21,535 nt of DNA, taken from positions 1-21,535 of the forward strand of contig JAAFKI010000147.1 of NCBI GenBank assembly GCA_021399345.1. The letters run 5' to 3'. Below are positions 1 to 8,755 of the stretch, piece after piece; within the stretch, counting starts at the first letter, position 1, and each line of letters starts with the position of its first letter. Position numbers and translations under genes: made by a program. The notes below the pieces were generated by a model. It worked only from the letters and a program-made list of their open reading frames with translations, was not told the origin of the DNA and ran no database searches. The DNA is from Candidatus Heimdallarchaeota archaeon. GTDB taxonomy: Archaea > Asgardarchaeota > Heimdallarchaeia > Heimdallarchaeales > Heimdallarchaeaceae.

Positions 1-1194
1 AAGGAATTCAGAGAAGAGGAATTTCCAGAAATTAATTCGCTTGATCTAACTACTAATTCAATTTTAATAGGAGATGATTTTCAACAAGGTGGATTAGTAT
101 TATCTCAGAAAGTTAGAGGAAGATATCACCTCACACCTATTGTTGCTCTCAAAATTGATTCCATTTCTTCCTCAACATCTTCAATTTTCAGCTCAATATC
201 CAGCATTACTCTACAAAAATTAAGTCTAAAATATCATTGCAGTATTATTGATACTGCCAAATATGAAGTTCTTCTCTTGAAAGGACAACCAAAAAGCTCT
301 AAGCACACTTCATTGTTCATTACCCTTCAGATTCTCGAGGAGACTTTTTTCCAACAGGTTTTTGATACTTTAACGGAGTTTACAAGAGAAAAAAAGATTT
401 CATTCGAGAAACTTGATGAGAGTGTATTGAAAGAGATTTTTCCTCTATATGAAAACGTGCTTTATATTTCACAAAATAGAGAGGAAATACAAAACATTCC
501 AGAATCAGCAGATATGATCGATAGTGAACCAGATGATCAAGATGATCGAGATGAAAGATTTGTGGAATTTCTAGTTAAAGAAAATAATAAAGAATCTGCT
601 GAAGAAATTGTAACTGTTAAAGAACAAAGTAATGTCATCCTTCTAGACAAAGTTGATGAAAAACAATCGATTGGTTCAGAACAGGTGAATCAAGAATCAG
701 ACTCAAATCAAAAAGAAATGATAAAAAATATTCTTTTGGGTGAACTAAATTTTTCCATCGACAGTTTTCTTTCAGCTGCTAGAGGTTATTACAAGAAGGC
801 TATAGAAACAGCTCTAGAAACTAAATATAAGGCAAATACCGAACGTTTCTTGAAAACTGTTCATCTCTATTGCGAAAGAGAAAATATTCCTTTCTATTAT
901 CCATCATATTCTTATCTTCTCAAAATTGTTGAATTTCTAGATATAGAGCTGCCATCATCAACAGAAATTGAGAATTTCGTAGATAGATTATCAGAAGAAT
1001 ATACTTCAATCTCAATAGATGATGAGAACAAACAGAAATTAGGTACTTTTCTAGAGTCGAAATTCAAAGATTCACAAGCTAATTCAAATGAATCGGTCAA
1101 AAATTTAGATGAAGCTGCAGATATTTCTTCAATTCCACAACCACCTGCAGCACGAAATACCAATAAAGAATTACTAATAGATGGAGGAGATTAA
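1..1194 (+). CDS. Hypothetical protein, 5'-truncated by the window; probable paralog of the N- and C-terminal domains of the 3436..6570 protein, with an acidic linker
   Basis: Frame 1 is open from base 1 (KEFREEEFPEINSLDLTTNS...), so the TTG at 277 is internal. TAA at 1192-1194 abuts the next ATG. Segments SQKVRGRYHLTPIVALK and FITLQILEETF align ungapped with SIRKGGKITLYAAFIVK and FQTIEDLVEDF of the 1044-aa protein. Confidence 0.85.
   Translation, partial: KEFREEEFPEINSLDLTTNSILIGDDFQQGGLVLSQKVRGRYHLTPIVALKIDSISSSTSSIFSSISSITLQKLSLKYHCSIIDTAKYEVLLLKGQPKSSKHTSLFITLQILEETFFQQVFDTLTEFTREKKISFEKLDESVLKEIFPLYENVLYISQNREEIQNIPESADMIDSEPDDQDDRDERFVEFLVKENNKESAEEIVTVKEQSNVILLDKVDEKQSIGSEQVNQESDSNQKEMIKNILLGELNFSIDSFLSAARGYYKKAIETALETKYKANTERFLKTVHLYCERENIPFYYPSYSYLLKIVEFLDIELPSSTEIENFVDRLSEEYTSISIDDENKQKLGTFLESKFKDSQANSNESVKNLDEAADISSIPQPPAARNTNKELLIDGGD
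1183..1187 (+). promoter_or_regulatory. Shine-Dalgarno site (GGAGG) for the 1195 ORF
   Basis: GGAGG lies 7 nt before ATG 1195, inside the last codons of the upstream gene (TAA-ATG junction). Confidence 0.7.
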
Positions 1195-1851
1195 ATGTTA
1201 GAAGATATATTCTTACTTGAGATCATAGAGTTTTACTTGAAATTCTGGCTAATTTCTCTCGCAATGAGATGGATGTTATCTTTTCTACCAGGGAGAATTT
1301 TCGATTTAATTCGTTTCATAGGCAACTTAGTTAGATATCCAGTTAAACGGCTATTGTACCTTATCTACGGTGTACAAATTCTTGAAACAGATTTTGAGAA
1401 ATCATTATTCAAAACAGAAGAAGTTGATGATTTTGATTGCAGAATTACTTCAAATGTAATTGCTCCACTTCTCATTTTGACCTATGTTGGTTCATTCATT
1501 CTGTACTGGGCAGATGTATTATATGACACAAAATACACATGGATAAGTATTATACTGTTTATTCTAGGTTTCGCAATTATATTAATGTCAGCACCAGATT
1601 TTCGTGAAGCTGAAGAATTACTTAAAACTAATCTAAAATCAATCTTCAAATGGTTCGCAAAACTAGTCTTTCTCGCACTTCCAACGTATTTCATTTTACA
1701 TTACTTTGTCGGGATTGAAGCTCTAGCTCAAGGAGTATTCTTCATTATACTACTGATTCCAGTATATCACCATAGTAGGAGAAAAGTAGGAGAAAAATGG
1801 GTTAAATCGAAAAAAGCAAAAGTATTAGAGGCTGACCCTTTTGGAGAATAA
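1195..1851 (+). CDS. Multi-pass membrane protein, M50-like/zincin (DUF3267-type) peptidase fold lacking HExxH
   Basis: About 5 hydrophobic segments. GNLVRYPVKRLLYLIYGV matches the spacing of GxxvHExxHxlxxxxxGv. Downstream IAPLL and SAPDFRE match the APl and PSxxD motifs of this family. The family call is from motif memory only. Confidence 0.7.
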   Translation: MLEDIFLLEIIEFYLKFWLISLAMRWMLSFLPGRIFDLIRFIGNLVRYPVKRLLYLIYGVQILETDFEKSLFKTEEVDDFDCRITSNVIAPLLILTYVGSFILYWADVLYDTKYTWISIILFILGFAIILMSAPDFREAEELLKTNLKSIFKWFAKLVFLALPTYFILHYFVGIEALAQGVFFIILLIPVYHHSRRKVGEKWVKSKKAKVLEADPFGE

Positions 1852-6570: not shown

Positions 6571-8755
6571 TTCTGACGGAAAATCAGTTAAGTATACAGA
6601 TTTCCAGAAAAGATGCTTAGAAGCATTCAAAACAAAATCTAACGTCTTTGCAATTGCTCCATCTTCTGCAGGAAAAACCTTCATAACAGAGCAATATATT
6701 TCAGAATACTTTCAGTCTATCTTTGGTAAATTTTTGAATTCTCCTAGAAAATTCAAAATAGGTTTCATACTTCCTTACAAATCTTTAGCAGTCCAAGAAT
6801 TCAATCACTCTTTGTCTTTGTTTGATCAAAGAGGGATAAAGACTCTTCTTGCAGTTGGAGGGGTGGAAATTGAAGAGGAAGAGATAGGAGATGCAAATAT
6901 CATTATTGGTACTTATGAGAAATTTTTAGTACTTTTAAAACGATATGAAGTTCTGCATAAGTATCTCAAAATATTAATCATTGATGAATTCCATTTTCTA
7001 GGAACAGATAGAGGGAAAGTAATAGAAGAAATATTACTTGAATGGCAGAGAAATGAAAGGCAAGCTCAGTTAATTTTGCTCTCTTCTTCAATAGCTAATC
7101 CTCTAGAAATATCAGATTGGCTAAATGTTTATCCTATAATAGAAACTAAAAGACCTGTTCCAATTGATTACTCAATTGAGGTTTTTGCTGATCCTCTCAA
7201 ATATTTAGATAAAACAGATAGCTTTGGAAAGCAGATATTGATTTTTACTCACTCACGGTCTGAAAGTGAATTATTAGCAACAAAAATAGCTTCAAAAAAA
7301 GAAGTAATTCAAGATTTTGAGATAGAAAAGATGATATCTGAAAATCTCGAAAGTGTTACAGATCCAAAGACTAAGAAGATTTTACAAGAAACGTATTTTC
7401 CTCCTAGTTTGAAAGAGATGGTAAAGAAAGGGGTCGCTTATCATCACGCGGGGTTATCAGATTTAGTCAGACTAATTGTAGAAAACATGTTTCTCAATGG
7501 AGAATTGAACACTTTGGTTTCCACTTCCACTCTTGCAGCAGGAGTAAATTTACCAGCTGATGTTTCTGTTTTTACTATAAAACATAACAGGATAAAGACA
7601 GAGAATAACTTAGTCTTTCAGACACTAGGAAGAGCAGGAAGACTAGGGATGAAAGATTCAGGAGAAGGAGTTGTCTTAGTTAGTAGTGAGCGCCTAAGGA
7701 AGCAAACTGAACAGAAGTTTTTCAGTAGTTCAACAGAACTGAAAACAGCTGTTCCACTATTCCACCCCATTAAAAGTTTCTTTGGAGACTATGATTTTCT
7801 GGTTCAGTTTTATTTAAGTAGGATTTACAATTCAGATAAGACTTTTTCCAGTGAATTGACTAATTTGCACGAAAATATTGGAGATTCATTGTGGTTCTAT
7901 CAAAATAGATCAAAAGTGATGAGAAATCTAGTTGATTTTGAGCTGTTTCAAGCACTATTTTCATCTTCAGAATCGTCTCTCGAAACACGTGAAATAATTG
8001 ACTTCTATAGAAGATTTGATAGTACTAGAAATGTAGTAGAAAGAAAGATGGAGATAATTTCAATAGAGGGCGTAAACACAGCTGCTATTATTGCGAATAT
8101 CAAAGAACAATCAAAGTTATACCAGATCTATTTATCTGCGTCTAGAAGGAGTTGTACATGTCAAAGTAAGCATTCTAATTACATTTGTAAGCATCAAAGA
8201 TTTCTGCTAGAAAAATATCCTGAGGGGCAAGAAAGATGGTTGAATAATTATGGAATTCTAGACTTCTTATACAAAGAAGGATTTATTGTAAAATCCGCTG
8301 AAAATAGAGTCAATTTAACCTATATGGGGCAACTAGCTGCAAGACATTATATTCATCCTTACGATTTTATTGATTATCTAGAATTTTGTGGAGTAAATAA
8401 AGAATTAACAATAACTCAATATCTCAAACAGTTCATAACCAAAGATAAGAGAATCAAACAAGAGATAAAAGCTAATGAGTTATCTTCACTTCTAGCAATC
8501 CGCTTAGCTCATGATATTGTAAATGGGGTAGAAATAAGAAGAATATGTGAGAAATATAATGTCAGTGATAGTTTTGTAAGTGAGTGGAGAGAAACAATCT
8601 TCCGTTTCATGAAAATGTTTGAATCTCTTAATTTGTTCATAGGTAAGAAAAACGAAGCAAAAAAAATAGATAATTGGTTAAAAGACAGTAAAGGTTTTCA
8701 TGAATTGGATTTATACAAAAATGTGTTAAAAACAAGACATGAAGTAAGCACTTGA
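6563..8755 (+). CDS. Ski2/Hel308-like SF2 DExH helicase with an inserted SWIM zinc finger
   Basis: Q motif (TDFQ), APSSAGKT, LPYKSLA, GTYEKF, IIDEFH, LSSSIAN, RPVP, AYHHAGL, STSTLAAGVNLPA, QTLGRAGRLG. SWIM-type CTC-x8-CKH at 8153-8194. Hel308 winged-helix signature LTYMGQLAARHYIHP. 8-nt overlap with the upstream gene. Confidence 0.92.
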   Translation: MLSSDGKSVKYTDFQKRCLEAFKTKSNVFAIAPSSAGKTFITEQYISEYFQSIFGKFLNSPRKFKIGFILPYKSLAVQEFNHSLSLFDQRGIKTLLAVGGVEIEEEEIGDANIIIGTYEKFLVLLKRYEVLHKYLKILIIDEFHFLGTDRGKVIEEILLEWQRNERQAQLILLSSSIANPLEISDWLNVYPIIETKRPVPIDYSIEVFADPLKYLDKTDSFGKQILIFTHSRSESELLATKIASKKEVIQDFEIEKMISENLESVTDPKTKKILQETYFPPSLKEMVKKGVAYHHAGLSDLVRLIVENMFLNGELNTLVSTSTLAAGVNLPADVSVFTIKHNRIKTENNLVFQTLGRAGRLGMKDSGEGVVLVSSERLRKQTEQKFFSSSTELKTAVPLFHPIKSFFGDYDFLVQFYLSRIYNSDKTFSSELTNLHENIGDSLWFYQNRSKVMRNLVDFELFQALFSSSESSLETREIIDFYRRFDSTRNVVERKMEIISIEGVNTAAIIANIKEQSKLYQIYLSASRRSCTCQSKHSNYICKHQRFLLEKYPEGQERWLNNYGILDFLYKEGFIVKSAENRVNLTYMGQLAARHYIHPYDFIDYLEFCGVNKELTITQYLKQFITKDKRIKQEIKANELSSLLAIRLAHDIVNGVEIRRICEKYNVSDSFVSEWRETIFRFMKMFESLNLFIGKKNEAKKIDNWLKDSKGFHELDLYKNVLKTRHEVST

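Follow-up and report, generated by a model that had tools for sequence, protein, structure and literature searches.

A Heimdallarchaeia-specific gene cluster couples membrane and surface proteins to DNA-processing proteins, including a pseudo-ATPase of predicted HerA fold

What brings together, in one compact cluster on an archaeal chromosome, genes for membrane and surface proteins and genes for proteins that handle DNA? The question is raised by a 21.5-kb stretch of DNA (21,535 nucleotides; hereafter, the window), the entire contig JAAFKI010000147.1 (C80) of an 88.6%-complete metagenome-assembled genome (MAG) of a Heimdallarchaeota (Asgard) archaeon, in which six plus-strand open reading frames (ORFs) lie abutting or overlapping at positions 1-8755. 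These are ORF1 (1-1194), the 5′ end of which is cut by the contig end; mem (1195-1851), coding for a polytopic membrane protein of 218 residues; a radB-like gene (1841-2917; product P0003) for a RadB/RecA-like ATPase paralog; nuc (2973-3467; P0004), for a nuclease of the PD-(D/E)xK fold with 164 residues; big (3436-6570; P0005), for a 1044-residue pseudo-ATPase of the HerA/VirB4/DndH fold, here called pseudo-HerA; and hel (6563-8755; P0006), for a paralog of Hel308/Ski2-type superfamily 2 (SF2) helicases with a SWIM zinc finger. In the databases, the cluster proteins are named solely ‘hypothetical protein’ or ‘DEAD/DEAH box helicase’. Our analysis reveals that they belong to a Heimdallarchaeia-specific, single-copy chromosomal cluster which couples a membrane/surface unit to a DNA unit. 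An earlier note, made from the letters of the window, had singled out the six co-directional genes, and re-examination of the ORFs reproduces them and their spacings (0, −11, +55, −32 and −8 nt) exactly; the Shine-Dalgarno (SD)-like sites that it mentioned (GGAGG, GAGG, AGGA) lie at most 25 nt upstream of 4 of the 5 internal starts, those of mem, radB, big and hel, whereas the window scan found none within 25 nt upstream of the nuc start.

The earlier note staked its proposal on conserved synteny in related genomes, and the gene set is indeed kept far beyond the genus, in three families. We compared 83 genomes of the class, assigned to families f1-f7; the window belongs to genus g1, which includes isolate AB_125, within family f1, and a sister genus, g13 (Ca. 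Heimdallarchaeum), is placed in the same family, with G000 denoting the window's own genome, other G numbers the genomes of relatives and L numbers extracted loci. The genomes are MAGs, in which a gene that is not found need not be absent. The gene order in g1 is surf-orf1-mem-radB-nuc-big-hel-radA-adhesin, where surf and adhesin code for surface proteins and radA for a Rad51/RadA-family paralog. In g13, the order is adhesin-orf1-mem-radB-nuc-big-hel-surf, with co-directional genes, short gaps and 25-40% identity, a Rad51 paralog ~4 kb upstream and, downstream, a second giant surface protein followed by an XPD-type helicase. Three species of f7 share the order adhesin-surf-2TM protein-mem-radB-Hef(-)-big-nuc(-), the third gene encoding a protein with two transmembrane (TM) segments, and in f2, surf-orf1-mem-p200-XPD-nuc converges with big-p557-Hef-like. 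Even a metagenomic outlier retains nuc-big-helicase, and the adjacency of nuc and big is the most conserved pairing of the cluster. Thus, the families of the cluster have stayed together through at least three rearrangements in three families of the class (f1, f2 and f7), often with RadA and XPD paralogs nearby, as in the flanks in f2 and g13.

Presence and absence tell a similar story. The big gene was found in 26 of the 30 genomes of f1, in the only genome of f2 and in 11 of 12 in f7, with a weak match in one of the two f6 genomes and none in f3 (0/12), f4 (0/3) or f5 (0/22). The pattern of mem is shared with it (f1 25/30, f2 1/1, f7 12/12, f4 0/3, f5 0/22, with weak matches in 1/2 genomes of f6 and 2/12 of f3), and big, nuc and mem are all lacking in the same four g1 genomes, one of which is 92% complete. 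The link between membrane and DNA genes that the earlier note proposed is therefore supported twice: the genes remain adjacent in rearranged orders, and they are found or missing jointly. The nuclease gene, single-copy in 61 of the 83 genomes, ranges more widely: besides f1 (26/30), f2 (1/1) and f7 (11/12), it was found in f6 (2/2) and in f5 (20/22), and neither in f3 (0/12) nor in f4 (0/3). In f5, it occurs without mem or big, near genes for helicases of the MrfA and XPD types and near a Rad51-family gene. This f5 neighbourhood, which may be a separate repair gene island, is conserved at L063:7150-18976, L064 and L065 and comprises the 921-residue MrfA-type helicase (with an MZB zinc domain), unannotated proteins of 373, 172 and 635 residues, the XPD-type helicase and the Rad51-family gene.

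The cluster appears to be vertically inherited. The identity of pseudo-HerA to the window protein is 55-98% within the genus, 34-38% in other f1 genera and 20-25% in f2 and f7, and because it falls in step with taxonomy, vertical descent fits. No integrase, relaxase or defence genes occur in the flanks of the cluster in the closed Heimdallarchaeum genome, and no defence genes in those of the window or of G001, which consist of transporters, surface proteins and repair paralogs; the window holds no tRNA genes. The sole defence-type neighbour that we saw is a BsaWI-like restriction enzyme with an N6/N4 methyltransferase, encoded just downstream of surf on a metagenomic Heimdallarchaeum-like contig (L021:10896-13007).

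What, then, are the proteins? The earlier note had read the six genes as a membrane protein, a RadB-like ATPase, a nuclease, a dead HerA/VirB4-like protein and a SWIM-Hel308 helicase, and the profiles, models and alignments described below bear out each of these assignments, with one correction at the membrane end. Pseudo-HerA is, as judged from its AlphaFold2 (AF2) model, a protein of the FtsK-HerA superfamily fold. The modelled core (residues ~228-604) gives VIA Z scores of 25.8 with DndH-C, 25.2 with VirB4, 22.6 with HerA and 21.3 with TrwB (321-331 residues, 3.2-4.2 Å), and the sequence profile aligns with genuine HerA across the ATPase core (hhalign 92%, E 5.7e-7). Pfam gave no match at E <= 0.1, the DUF87 and HerA_C models included, and the profile retrieved nothing meaningful from PDB sequences. 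Three regions outside the core gave no structural matches: the N-terminal 228 residues, a segment that resembles a winged helix (~626-719) and the tail, which is long and helical.

Walker A is replaced in this protein: the P-loop is 4 residues shorter than that of HerA (AGD----KKTRE vs GSTGSGKS). All members examined, from five f1 genera, f2, f7 and metagenomic outliers, share this deletion, which places the loss of the P-loop before the diversification of the family; Walker B varies as well (DD, NN, PQ or EN). The reading frames are nevertheless intact, with 1025-1208 residues, and well conserved. An early-lost P-loop in a frame kept intact across at least three families implies a role other than that of a motor, such as a scaffold or a clamp, and pseudo-HerA thus offers a clear natural exception to the treatment of the HerA/VirB4 fold, so far, as a translocase only. 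The family is very small, with 22 matches among 1.84 billion representatives. In both g10 genomes, the match contains one in-frame TAA (G041:C44:36458-39610 and G042:C185:1394-4546), which could reflect a split gene, a pseudogene or alignment run-through. The intact HerA/VirB4 partner that the earlier note had expected upstream did not materialize: in relatives, the gene upstream of ORF1 is surf, which encodes a type-I-anchored ectodomain protein, and none of the lineages has such a partner in its cluster.

The AF2 model of P0004 (pLDDT 85.7) adopts a restriction-endonuclease-like fold, and Foldseek and VIA comparisons agree on PD-(D/E)xK. Its best structural match is 3dnx (Foldseek E 3e-6; VIA Z 15.8 over 137 residues at 2.9 Å), followed by AF1548 (Z 9.3) and by PaqCI, Can2 and NucS (Z 7.6-8.3), and it stands well clear of generic PD-(D/E)xK nucleases in general (Z 5-9). 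We take 3dnx to be the structure of the Pfam MmcB-like repair-nuclease family; PF06319 (MmcB-like) itself, at a threshold of E <= 10, matched none of the genome's sequences, and the nuc profile found nothing meaningful among PDB sequences. Residues E6, D51, E66-x-E68, H75 and Q101 are invariant even in homologs with as little as 26% identity. The K of the canonical D...(D/E)xK signature is thereby replaced by E, a pattern that points to a maintained, putative active site of an ExE variant. An ExE variant is active in BamHI. Matches to Hjc structures are weak (Z 4.6-4.7), and P0004 was rejected as the Hjc of this lineage, the canonical Hjc being encoded on contig C135. A complex prediction of the nuclease with residues 1-620 of pseudo-HerA scored 0.00, a result that we count neither for nor against binding.

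Two RecA-family proteins accompany the cluster in the window. By its profile matches, P0003 is a member of the RecA superfamily that is nearest to RadB without being a RadB equivalog: it matches the RadB equivalog model TIGR02237 at 5e-15 (55.9 bits, below the cut-off of 172.4) and PDB RadB 2cvf at 5.8e-6. Walker A (GPPGSxKT) and Walker B are conserved within a RecA core that spans residues ~160-358. Residues 1-150 (window 1841-2290) form a low-complexity extension that is variable but includes the invariant motif P-x-x-S-[VI]-R-Y, seen in genus g1 only; the orthologs in g13 and f7, of 207-228 residues, are without it, and it may be a docking peptide. The second protein is encoded by radA (14150-15343, plus strand; Pfam Rad51 at 2e-53), which ranks fourth among the Rad51-family genes of the genome (183 bits vs 318, 260 and 226). 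Within the genus, radA belongs to the extended cluster since it directly follows hel in G001 and G021 (loci L015 and L017); a Rad51 paralog also neighbours the cluster in g13 and, in f5, the nuclease gene. In the window, two genes for NosD/beta-helix surface proteins of 867 and 751 residues (8825-13873, minus strand) intervene between hel and radA. This pair is absent from G001 and G021 and, for this reason, looks like an insertion into the cluster.

The helicase P0006 has intact SF2 motifs (APSSAGKT, DEFH and QTLGRAGR, invariant in five orthologs), Pfam matches to DEAD (1.6e-20) and Helicase_C (6.7e-8), and an invariant CxC...CxH SWIM signature at residues ~520-552. Among solved structures, the best matches are Brr2 and ASCC3 (1e-65 to 1e-76), followed by Hel308/Hjm (~1e-36 to 1e-42) and HamB (3e-11). 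Homology to solved Hel308 stops near residue 445, and the C-terminal half is lineage-specific, found in Heimdallarchaeota only. P0006 scores 154 bits against the Hel308 equivalog NF040935, for which the cut-off is 1200, and the actual Hel308 ortholog of the genome, on contig C161, scores 634 bits vs ~92 for P0006. This ortholog lies ~4 kb from the best DUF87/HerA gene of the genome (G000:C161:2459-9244), in what may be a canonical repair locus. Elsewhere, G000 encodes, apart from Hel308, three stronger Rad51-family proteins, a canonical Hjc, one Hef and several DUF87/HerA proteins, and because canonical Hel308, Hef, Hjc, RadA and HerA are all present outside the cluster, the cluster set is extra and specialised. 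The occupant of the helicase slot differs between lineages: f1 genomes have one Hef and a canonical Hel308, both outside the cluster, and in f7 genomes, Hef is encoded twice, once within the cluster. This in-cluster Hef is full-length (helicase, ERCC4 and HhH; L040:6757-9213, minus strand, with the same position in L041 and L042), and the f2 counterpart (L039:6574-8946) combines helicase and HhH with no ERCC4 match. Thus, the slot is filled by dedicated paralogs of repair helicases, of the Hel308 type in f1 and of the Hef type in f7 and f2.

At the membrane end, the earlier note was right about mem, which is polytopic, with several TM segments in the TM scan, but ORF1 has to be counted as a membrane protein as well, given the TM hairpin in its orthologs. 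Full-length ORF1 orthologs, of 460-497 residues, start with this N-terminal hairpin and continue into predicted cytoplasmic domains; neither Pfam and PDB sequences nor the ESM Atlas and PHROGs hold a match to ORF1. Orthologs stand directly upstream of mem in g1 and g13, and the position is filled by TM-bearing proteins of 265 residues in f7 and 329 residues in f2, the former with no detectable sequence similarity to ORF1 (E 2.2) and the latter assigned by position alone. That ORF1 and pseudo-HerA share domains was considered and rejected (BLAST E 0.13; hhalign probability 0.09%). The 3′ end of mem overlaps the start of the radB-like gene by 11 nt in the window, by 8 nt in f7 and by ~4 nt in g13. 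Relatives of mem in the ESM Atlas fall into exclusively Asgard clusters; scores of 0.81-0.83 with Peptidase_M50B and DUF3267 are weak leads only, and as the notion of a pseudo-protease rests on them, it stays a lead. Divergent second copies of the mem family occur in f1 genomes at G045:C1:320983-321603, G046:C1:376739-377359 and G044:C4:56566-57156.

The surface component includes a giant adhesin with immunoglobulin (Ig)-like repeats, which in the window (15354-21533, plus strand; 3′ end cut by the contig end) exceeds 2060 residues and contains Pfam domains Big_1, Big_3_5 and CarboxypepD_reg; its gene starts 10 nt from radA and has an SD-like site of its own. The ortholog in G001 has an N-terminal signal and a C-terminal TM anchor, and the gene is linked to the cluster in g1, g13 and f7, at differing positions. 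All told, TM or signal segments occur in adhesin, surf, ORF1 and mem but in none of the four DNA proteins. Upstream of surf (L014:9093-10976; orthologs in L016, L018 and L019), g1 genomes also conserve genes for an anchored secreted protein of 202 residues and, divergently transcribed, for a multi-TM protein of ~420 residues; neither has a Pfam match, and neither was seen beside the cluster in other families.

How might such parts work together? The reading that we prefer, though we give it somewhat less than an even chance, is an apparatus anchored in the envelope that would take charge of incoming or outgoing DNA, by import or exchange, for use in recombination. It could be likened, by analogy, to the Ups/Ced ‘community DNA repair’ or to bacterial competence, although its parts are not theirs. 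Contact with a partner cell or with DNA would fall to the adhesins and surf, and ORF1 and mem would form a membrane platform on which the inactive HerA-fold protein might sit as a passive ring or scaffold, gripping DNA with its winged helix. The motors would be the SF2 helicase and the RecA-like ATPase, the nuclease would trim ends or one strand, and the RadA paralog would integrate the DNA. We favour an apparatus of this kind because mem and the radB-like gene overlap in g1, g13 and f7, because mem and big share a phyletic pattern, and because adhesin and surf stay linked to the cluster after moving position within it. It is further favoured by the membrane or surface topology of four parts, a feature of none of the DNA proteins; by the docking of HerA/VirB4-fold proteins on membrane partners in type IV secretion systems (T4SS) as well as Ced; by the recurrence of the gene set, rearranged, in distant lineages; by the filling of the helicase slot with dedicated paralogs of different repair helicases; and by the lack of integrase, relaxase or defence genes in the flanks in the closed genome.

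Several observations weigh on the other side. Searches of Pfam, PDB and the Atlas recognised no component as a channel, pilin or DNA receptor, and the HerA-fold protein, unlike CedB or VirB4, is predicted from its P-loop to be incapable of canonical ATP hydrolysis. Moreover, the rearranged lineages all belong to one class, so that common inheritance, instead of selection, could account for part of the linkage, and the presence of nuc without mem or big in f5 fits a purely cytoplasmic repair role of the DNA unit.

The f5 pattern leads to the alternative that survives best, namely, that the cluster encodes a cytoplasmic, lineage-specific repair module for stalled forks, crosslinks or recombination intermediates. 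The pseudo-HerA ring, the nuclease, the helicase of Hel308 or Hef type and the RecA-family paralogs would then act on lesions of the chromosome, and the membrane and surface genes would be mere neighbours or, at most, serve in anchoring or regulation. The soluble parts are, without exception, paralogs of proteins of repair or recombination; 3dnx, the best structural match of the nuclease (Z 15.8), is taken to represent the MmcB-like repair nucleases; nuc is older and wider in distribution than the membrane unit and, in f5, stands beside MrfA-type, XPD-type and Rad51-family genes; XPD and RadA paralogs flank the cluster in f2 and g13; and an archaeal precedent is at hand in the interplay of Hjm and PINA (PMC6061704). 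Mere neighbourhood, however, sits poorly with the overlap of mem and the RecA-like gene in g1, g13 and f7, with the joint absence of mem and pseudo-HerA from four g1 genomes and from f5, and with the continued attachment of adhesin and surf after a change of position, and the presence of canonical Hel308, Hef, Hjc, RadA and HerA elsewhere marks the cluster set as extra. On balance, we think a repair module unlikely.

A doubtful reading, to our minds, is contact-dependent, ‘mating-like’ DNA exchange, in which giant adhesins would join cells, the membrane platform with its inactive ring would pass DNA to the helicase, the nuclease and the Rad51-family paralogs, and the pairing of SWIM, Rad51-paralog and HELQ-type elements would be a forerunner of the eukaryotic Shu/HELQ-RAD51-paralog control.

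Antiviral defence, of the HerA-plus-nuclease or the Hachiman kind, would have the helicase sense foreign or damaged DNA and release or activate the nuclease, possibly at the membrane, the point of entry of viral DNA. The fold matches of pseudo-HerA include SIR2-HerA, DUF4297-HerA and TdpAB, known defence complexes in which rings of HerA fold are paired with effector nucleases, the PADLOC profiles of HamB match the helicase at 2e-37, one metagenomic copy of the cluster adjoins a restriction-modification pair, and few recognised defence systems are present in Heimdallarchaeia, so that undiscovered ones are to be expected (PMC11291487). Yet PADLOC matches the helicase only, apart from one weak mad8 match on the Walker B region, and the known HerA defence complexes are powered by an ATPase that is inactive in all members examined here. 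In f1 and f7, the cluster is almost universal, in single copy, and not patchy, its identity follows taxonomy, and its flanks are without defence genes. The Hachiman alternative raised by the earlier note fares no better: no HamA (DUF1837) match exists among the six window proteins, P0004 has no PADLOC match at E <= 0.1, solved HamB falls far below Hel308/Hjm, ASCC3 and Brr2 in similarity to the helicase, and the distribution is stable and looks vertical. On these grounds, we regard a defence function as improbable.

Finally, a domesticated conjugative or T4SS-like remnant that lost mobility is very improbable: although the ATPase core resembles VirB4 and TrwB/VirD4 to the same degree as HerA (Z 25 and 21 vs 22-23), and adhesins and small membrane proteins do accompany conjugation systems, Pfam searches of the cluster and flanks yielded no relaxase, active VirD4-type ATPase, VirB6-like protein, pilin or integrase, PHROGs hold no viral family for any cluster protein except the helicase, no tRNA gene marks the window, and the distribution looks vertical.

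Eukaryotes are thought to descend from the class Heimdallarchaeia, and the cluster is a testable candidate for DNA exchange or recombination in these archaea. Its families have eukaryotic counterparts that control recombination at damaged forks, namely, HELQ, FANCM/Hef, RAD51 paralogs and SWIM proteins. Should the repair-only explanation prove true, these closest eukaryotic relatives would possess a repair pathway that is new and particular to their lineage. The soluble parts are all of known fold; what is new is the combination and the dead ring.

The earlier note did not recognise this combination as a described system, and our searches concur: PADLOC, Pfam, NCBIfam, PHROGs and the literature searched gave no full match, and no published description of the cluster was found in that literature. 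Partial likenesses are nonetheless instructive. HerA-NurA, which acts in end resection, and the defence complexes SIR2-HerA, DUF4297-HerA and TdpAB resemble the cluster in that a HerA-fold gene lies beside a small nuclease gene, but here the ATPase is ancestrally inactive, the nuclease is 3dnx-like rather than NurA, SIR2 or DUF4297 (no NurA domain is found in the cluster), and the set is extended by a helicase paralog and a membrane unit. Hachiman likewise encodes a PD-(D/E)xK-type nuclease together with a Ski2/Hel308-like helicase; the nuclease of our cluster, by contrast, has 164 residues, six further partners are conserved with the pair, and the distribution is stable and not patchy.

In bacterial competence (ComEA, ComEC, ComFA, DprA and RecA), surface contact with DNA is followed by a polytopic membrane protein, an SF2-type ATPase at the cytoplasmic face, a nuclease and hand-over to RecA. 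The cluster seems to follow the same logic of parts, by functional analogy only: no homology of the membrane or surface parts was detected, and the cluster contains no type IV pilus genes. The interplay of RadB and Hjc in archaea is a further point of reference. Together with that of Hjm and PINA in Holliday-junction processing (PMC6061704), it forms a RadB-Hjc-Hjm(Hel308)-PINA set that matches the cluster in combining a RecA paralog with a small nuclease of the PD-(D/E)xK type, a helicase of the Hel308 type and a ring-forming protein of NTPase fold. The cluster departs from this set in that all four of its proteins are extra paralogs and the HerA-fold ring protein is inactive. In the Shu complex, a SWIM protein acts with Rad51 paralogs (PMC5727457, PMC11339404), and in the cluster, a SWIM finger and a RecA/Rad51 paralog are co-encoded with a helicase of the HELQ/Hel308 type, a likeness at the level of co-encoding. 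Unlike in the Shu complex, SWIM is fused inside the helicase instead of forming a stand-alone protein like SWS1, and the Hef proteins of f7 and f2 are without it.

A further parallel in overall design is provided by the Ced, Ups and Ted systems of Crenarchaeota, which are chromosomal, lineage-specific and not mobile, and of which Ced comprises the active VirB4/VirD4-type ATPases CedB and CedD, the VirB6-like CedA/CedE and pilins (PMC11868833, PMC11823120, PMC9905601). As in those systems, a membrane platform, a HerA/VirB4-fold protein and a cell-adhesion device would feed homologous recombination. No sequence relation of the cluster to Ced proteins was detected, and no Pfam family of VirB6/CedA-like proteins, pilins, coupling proteins or relaxases is present in the cluster or its flanks, though mem and ORF1 may still be distant relatives of VirB6 or VirB3. 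Whereas Ced, Ted and T4SS need an active VirB4-type ATPase, the HerA-fold protein of the Heimdallarchaeia is without a P-loop; adhesion would be the task of giant Ig-repeat proteins, not of pili; and integral parts of the cluster include a nuclease as well as an SF2 helicase and a paralog of RecA.

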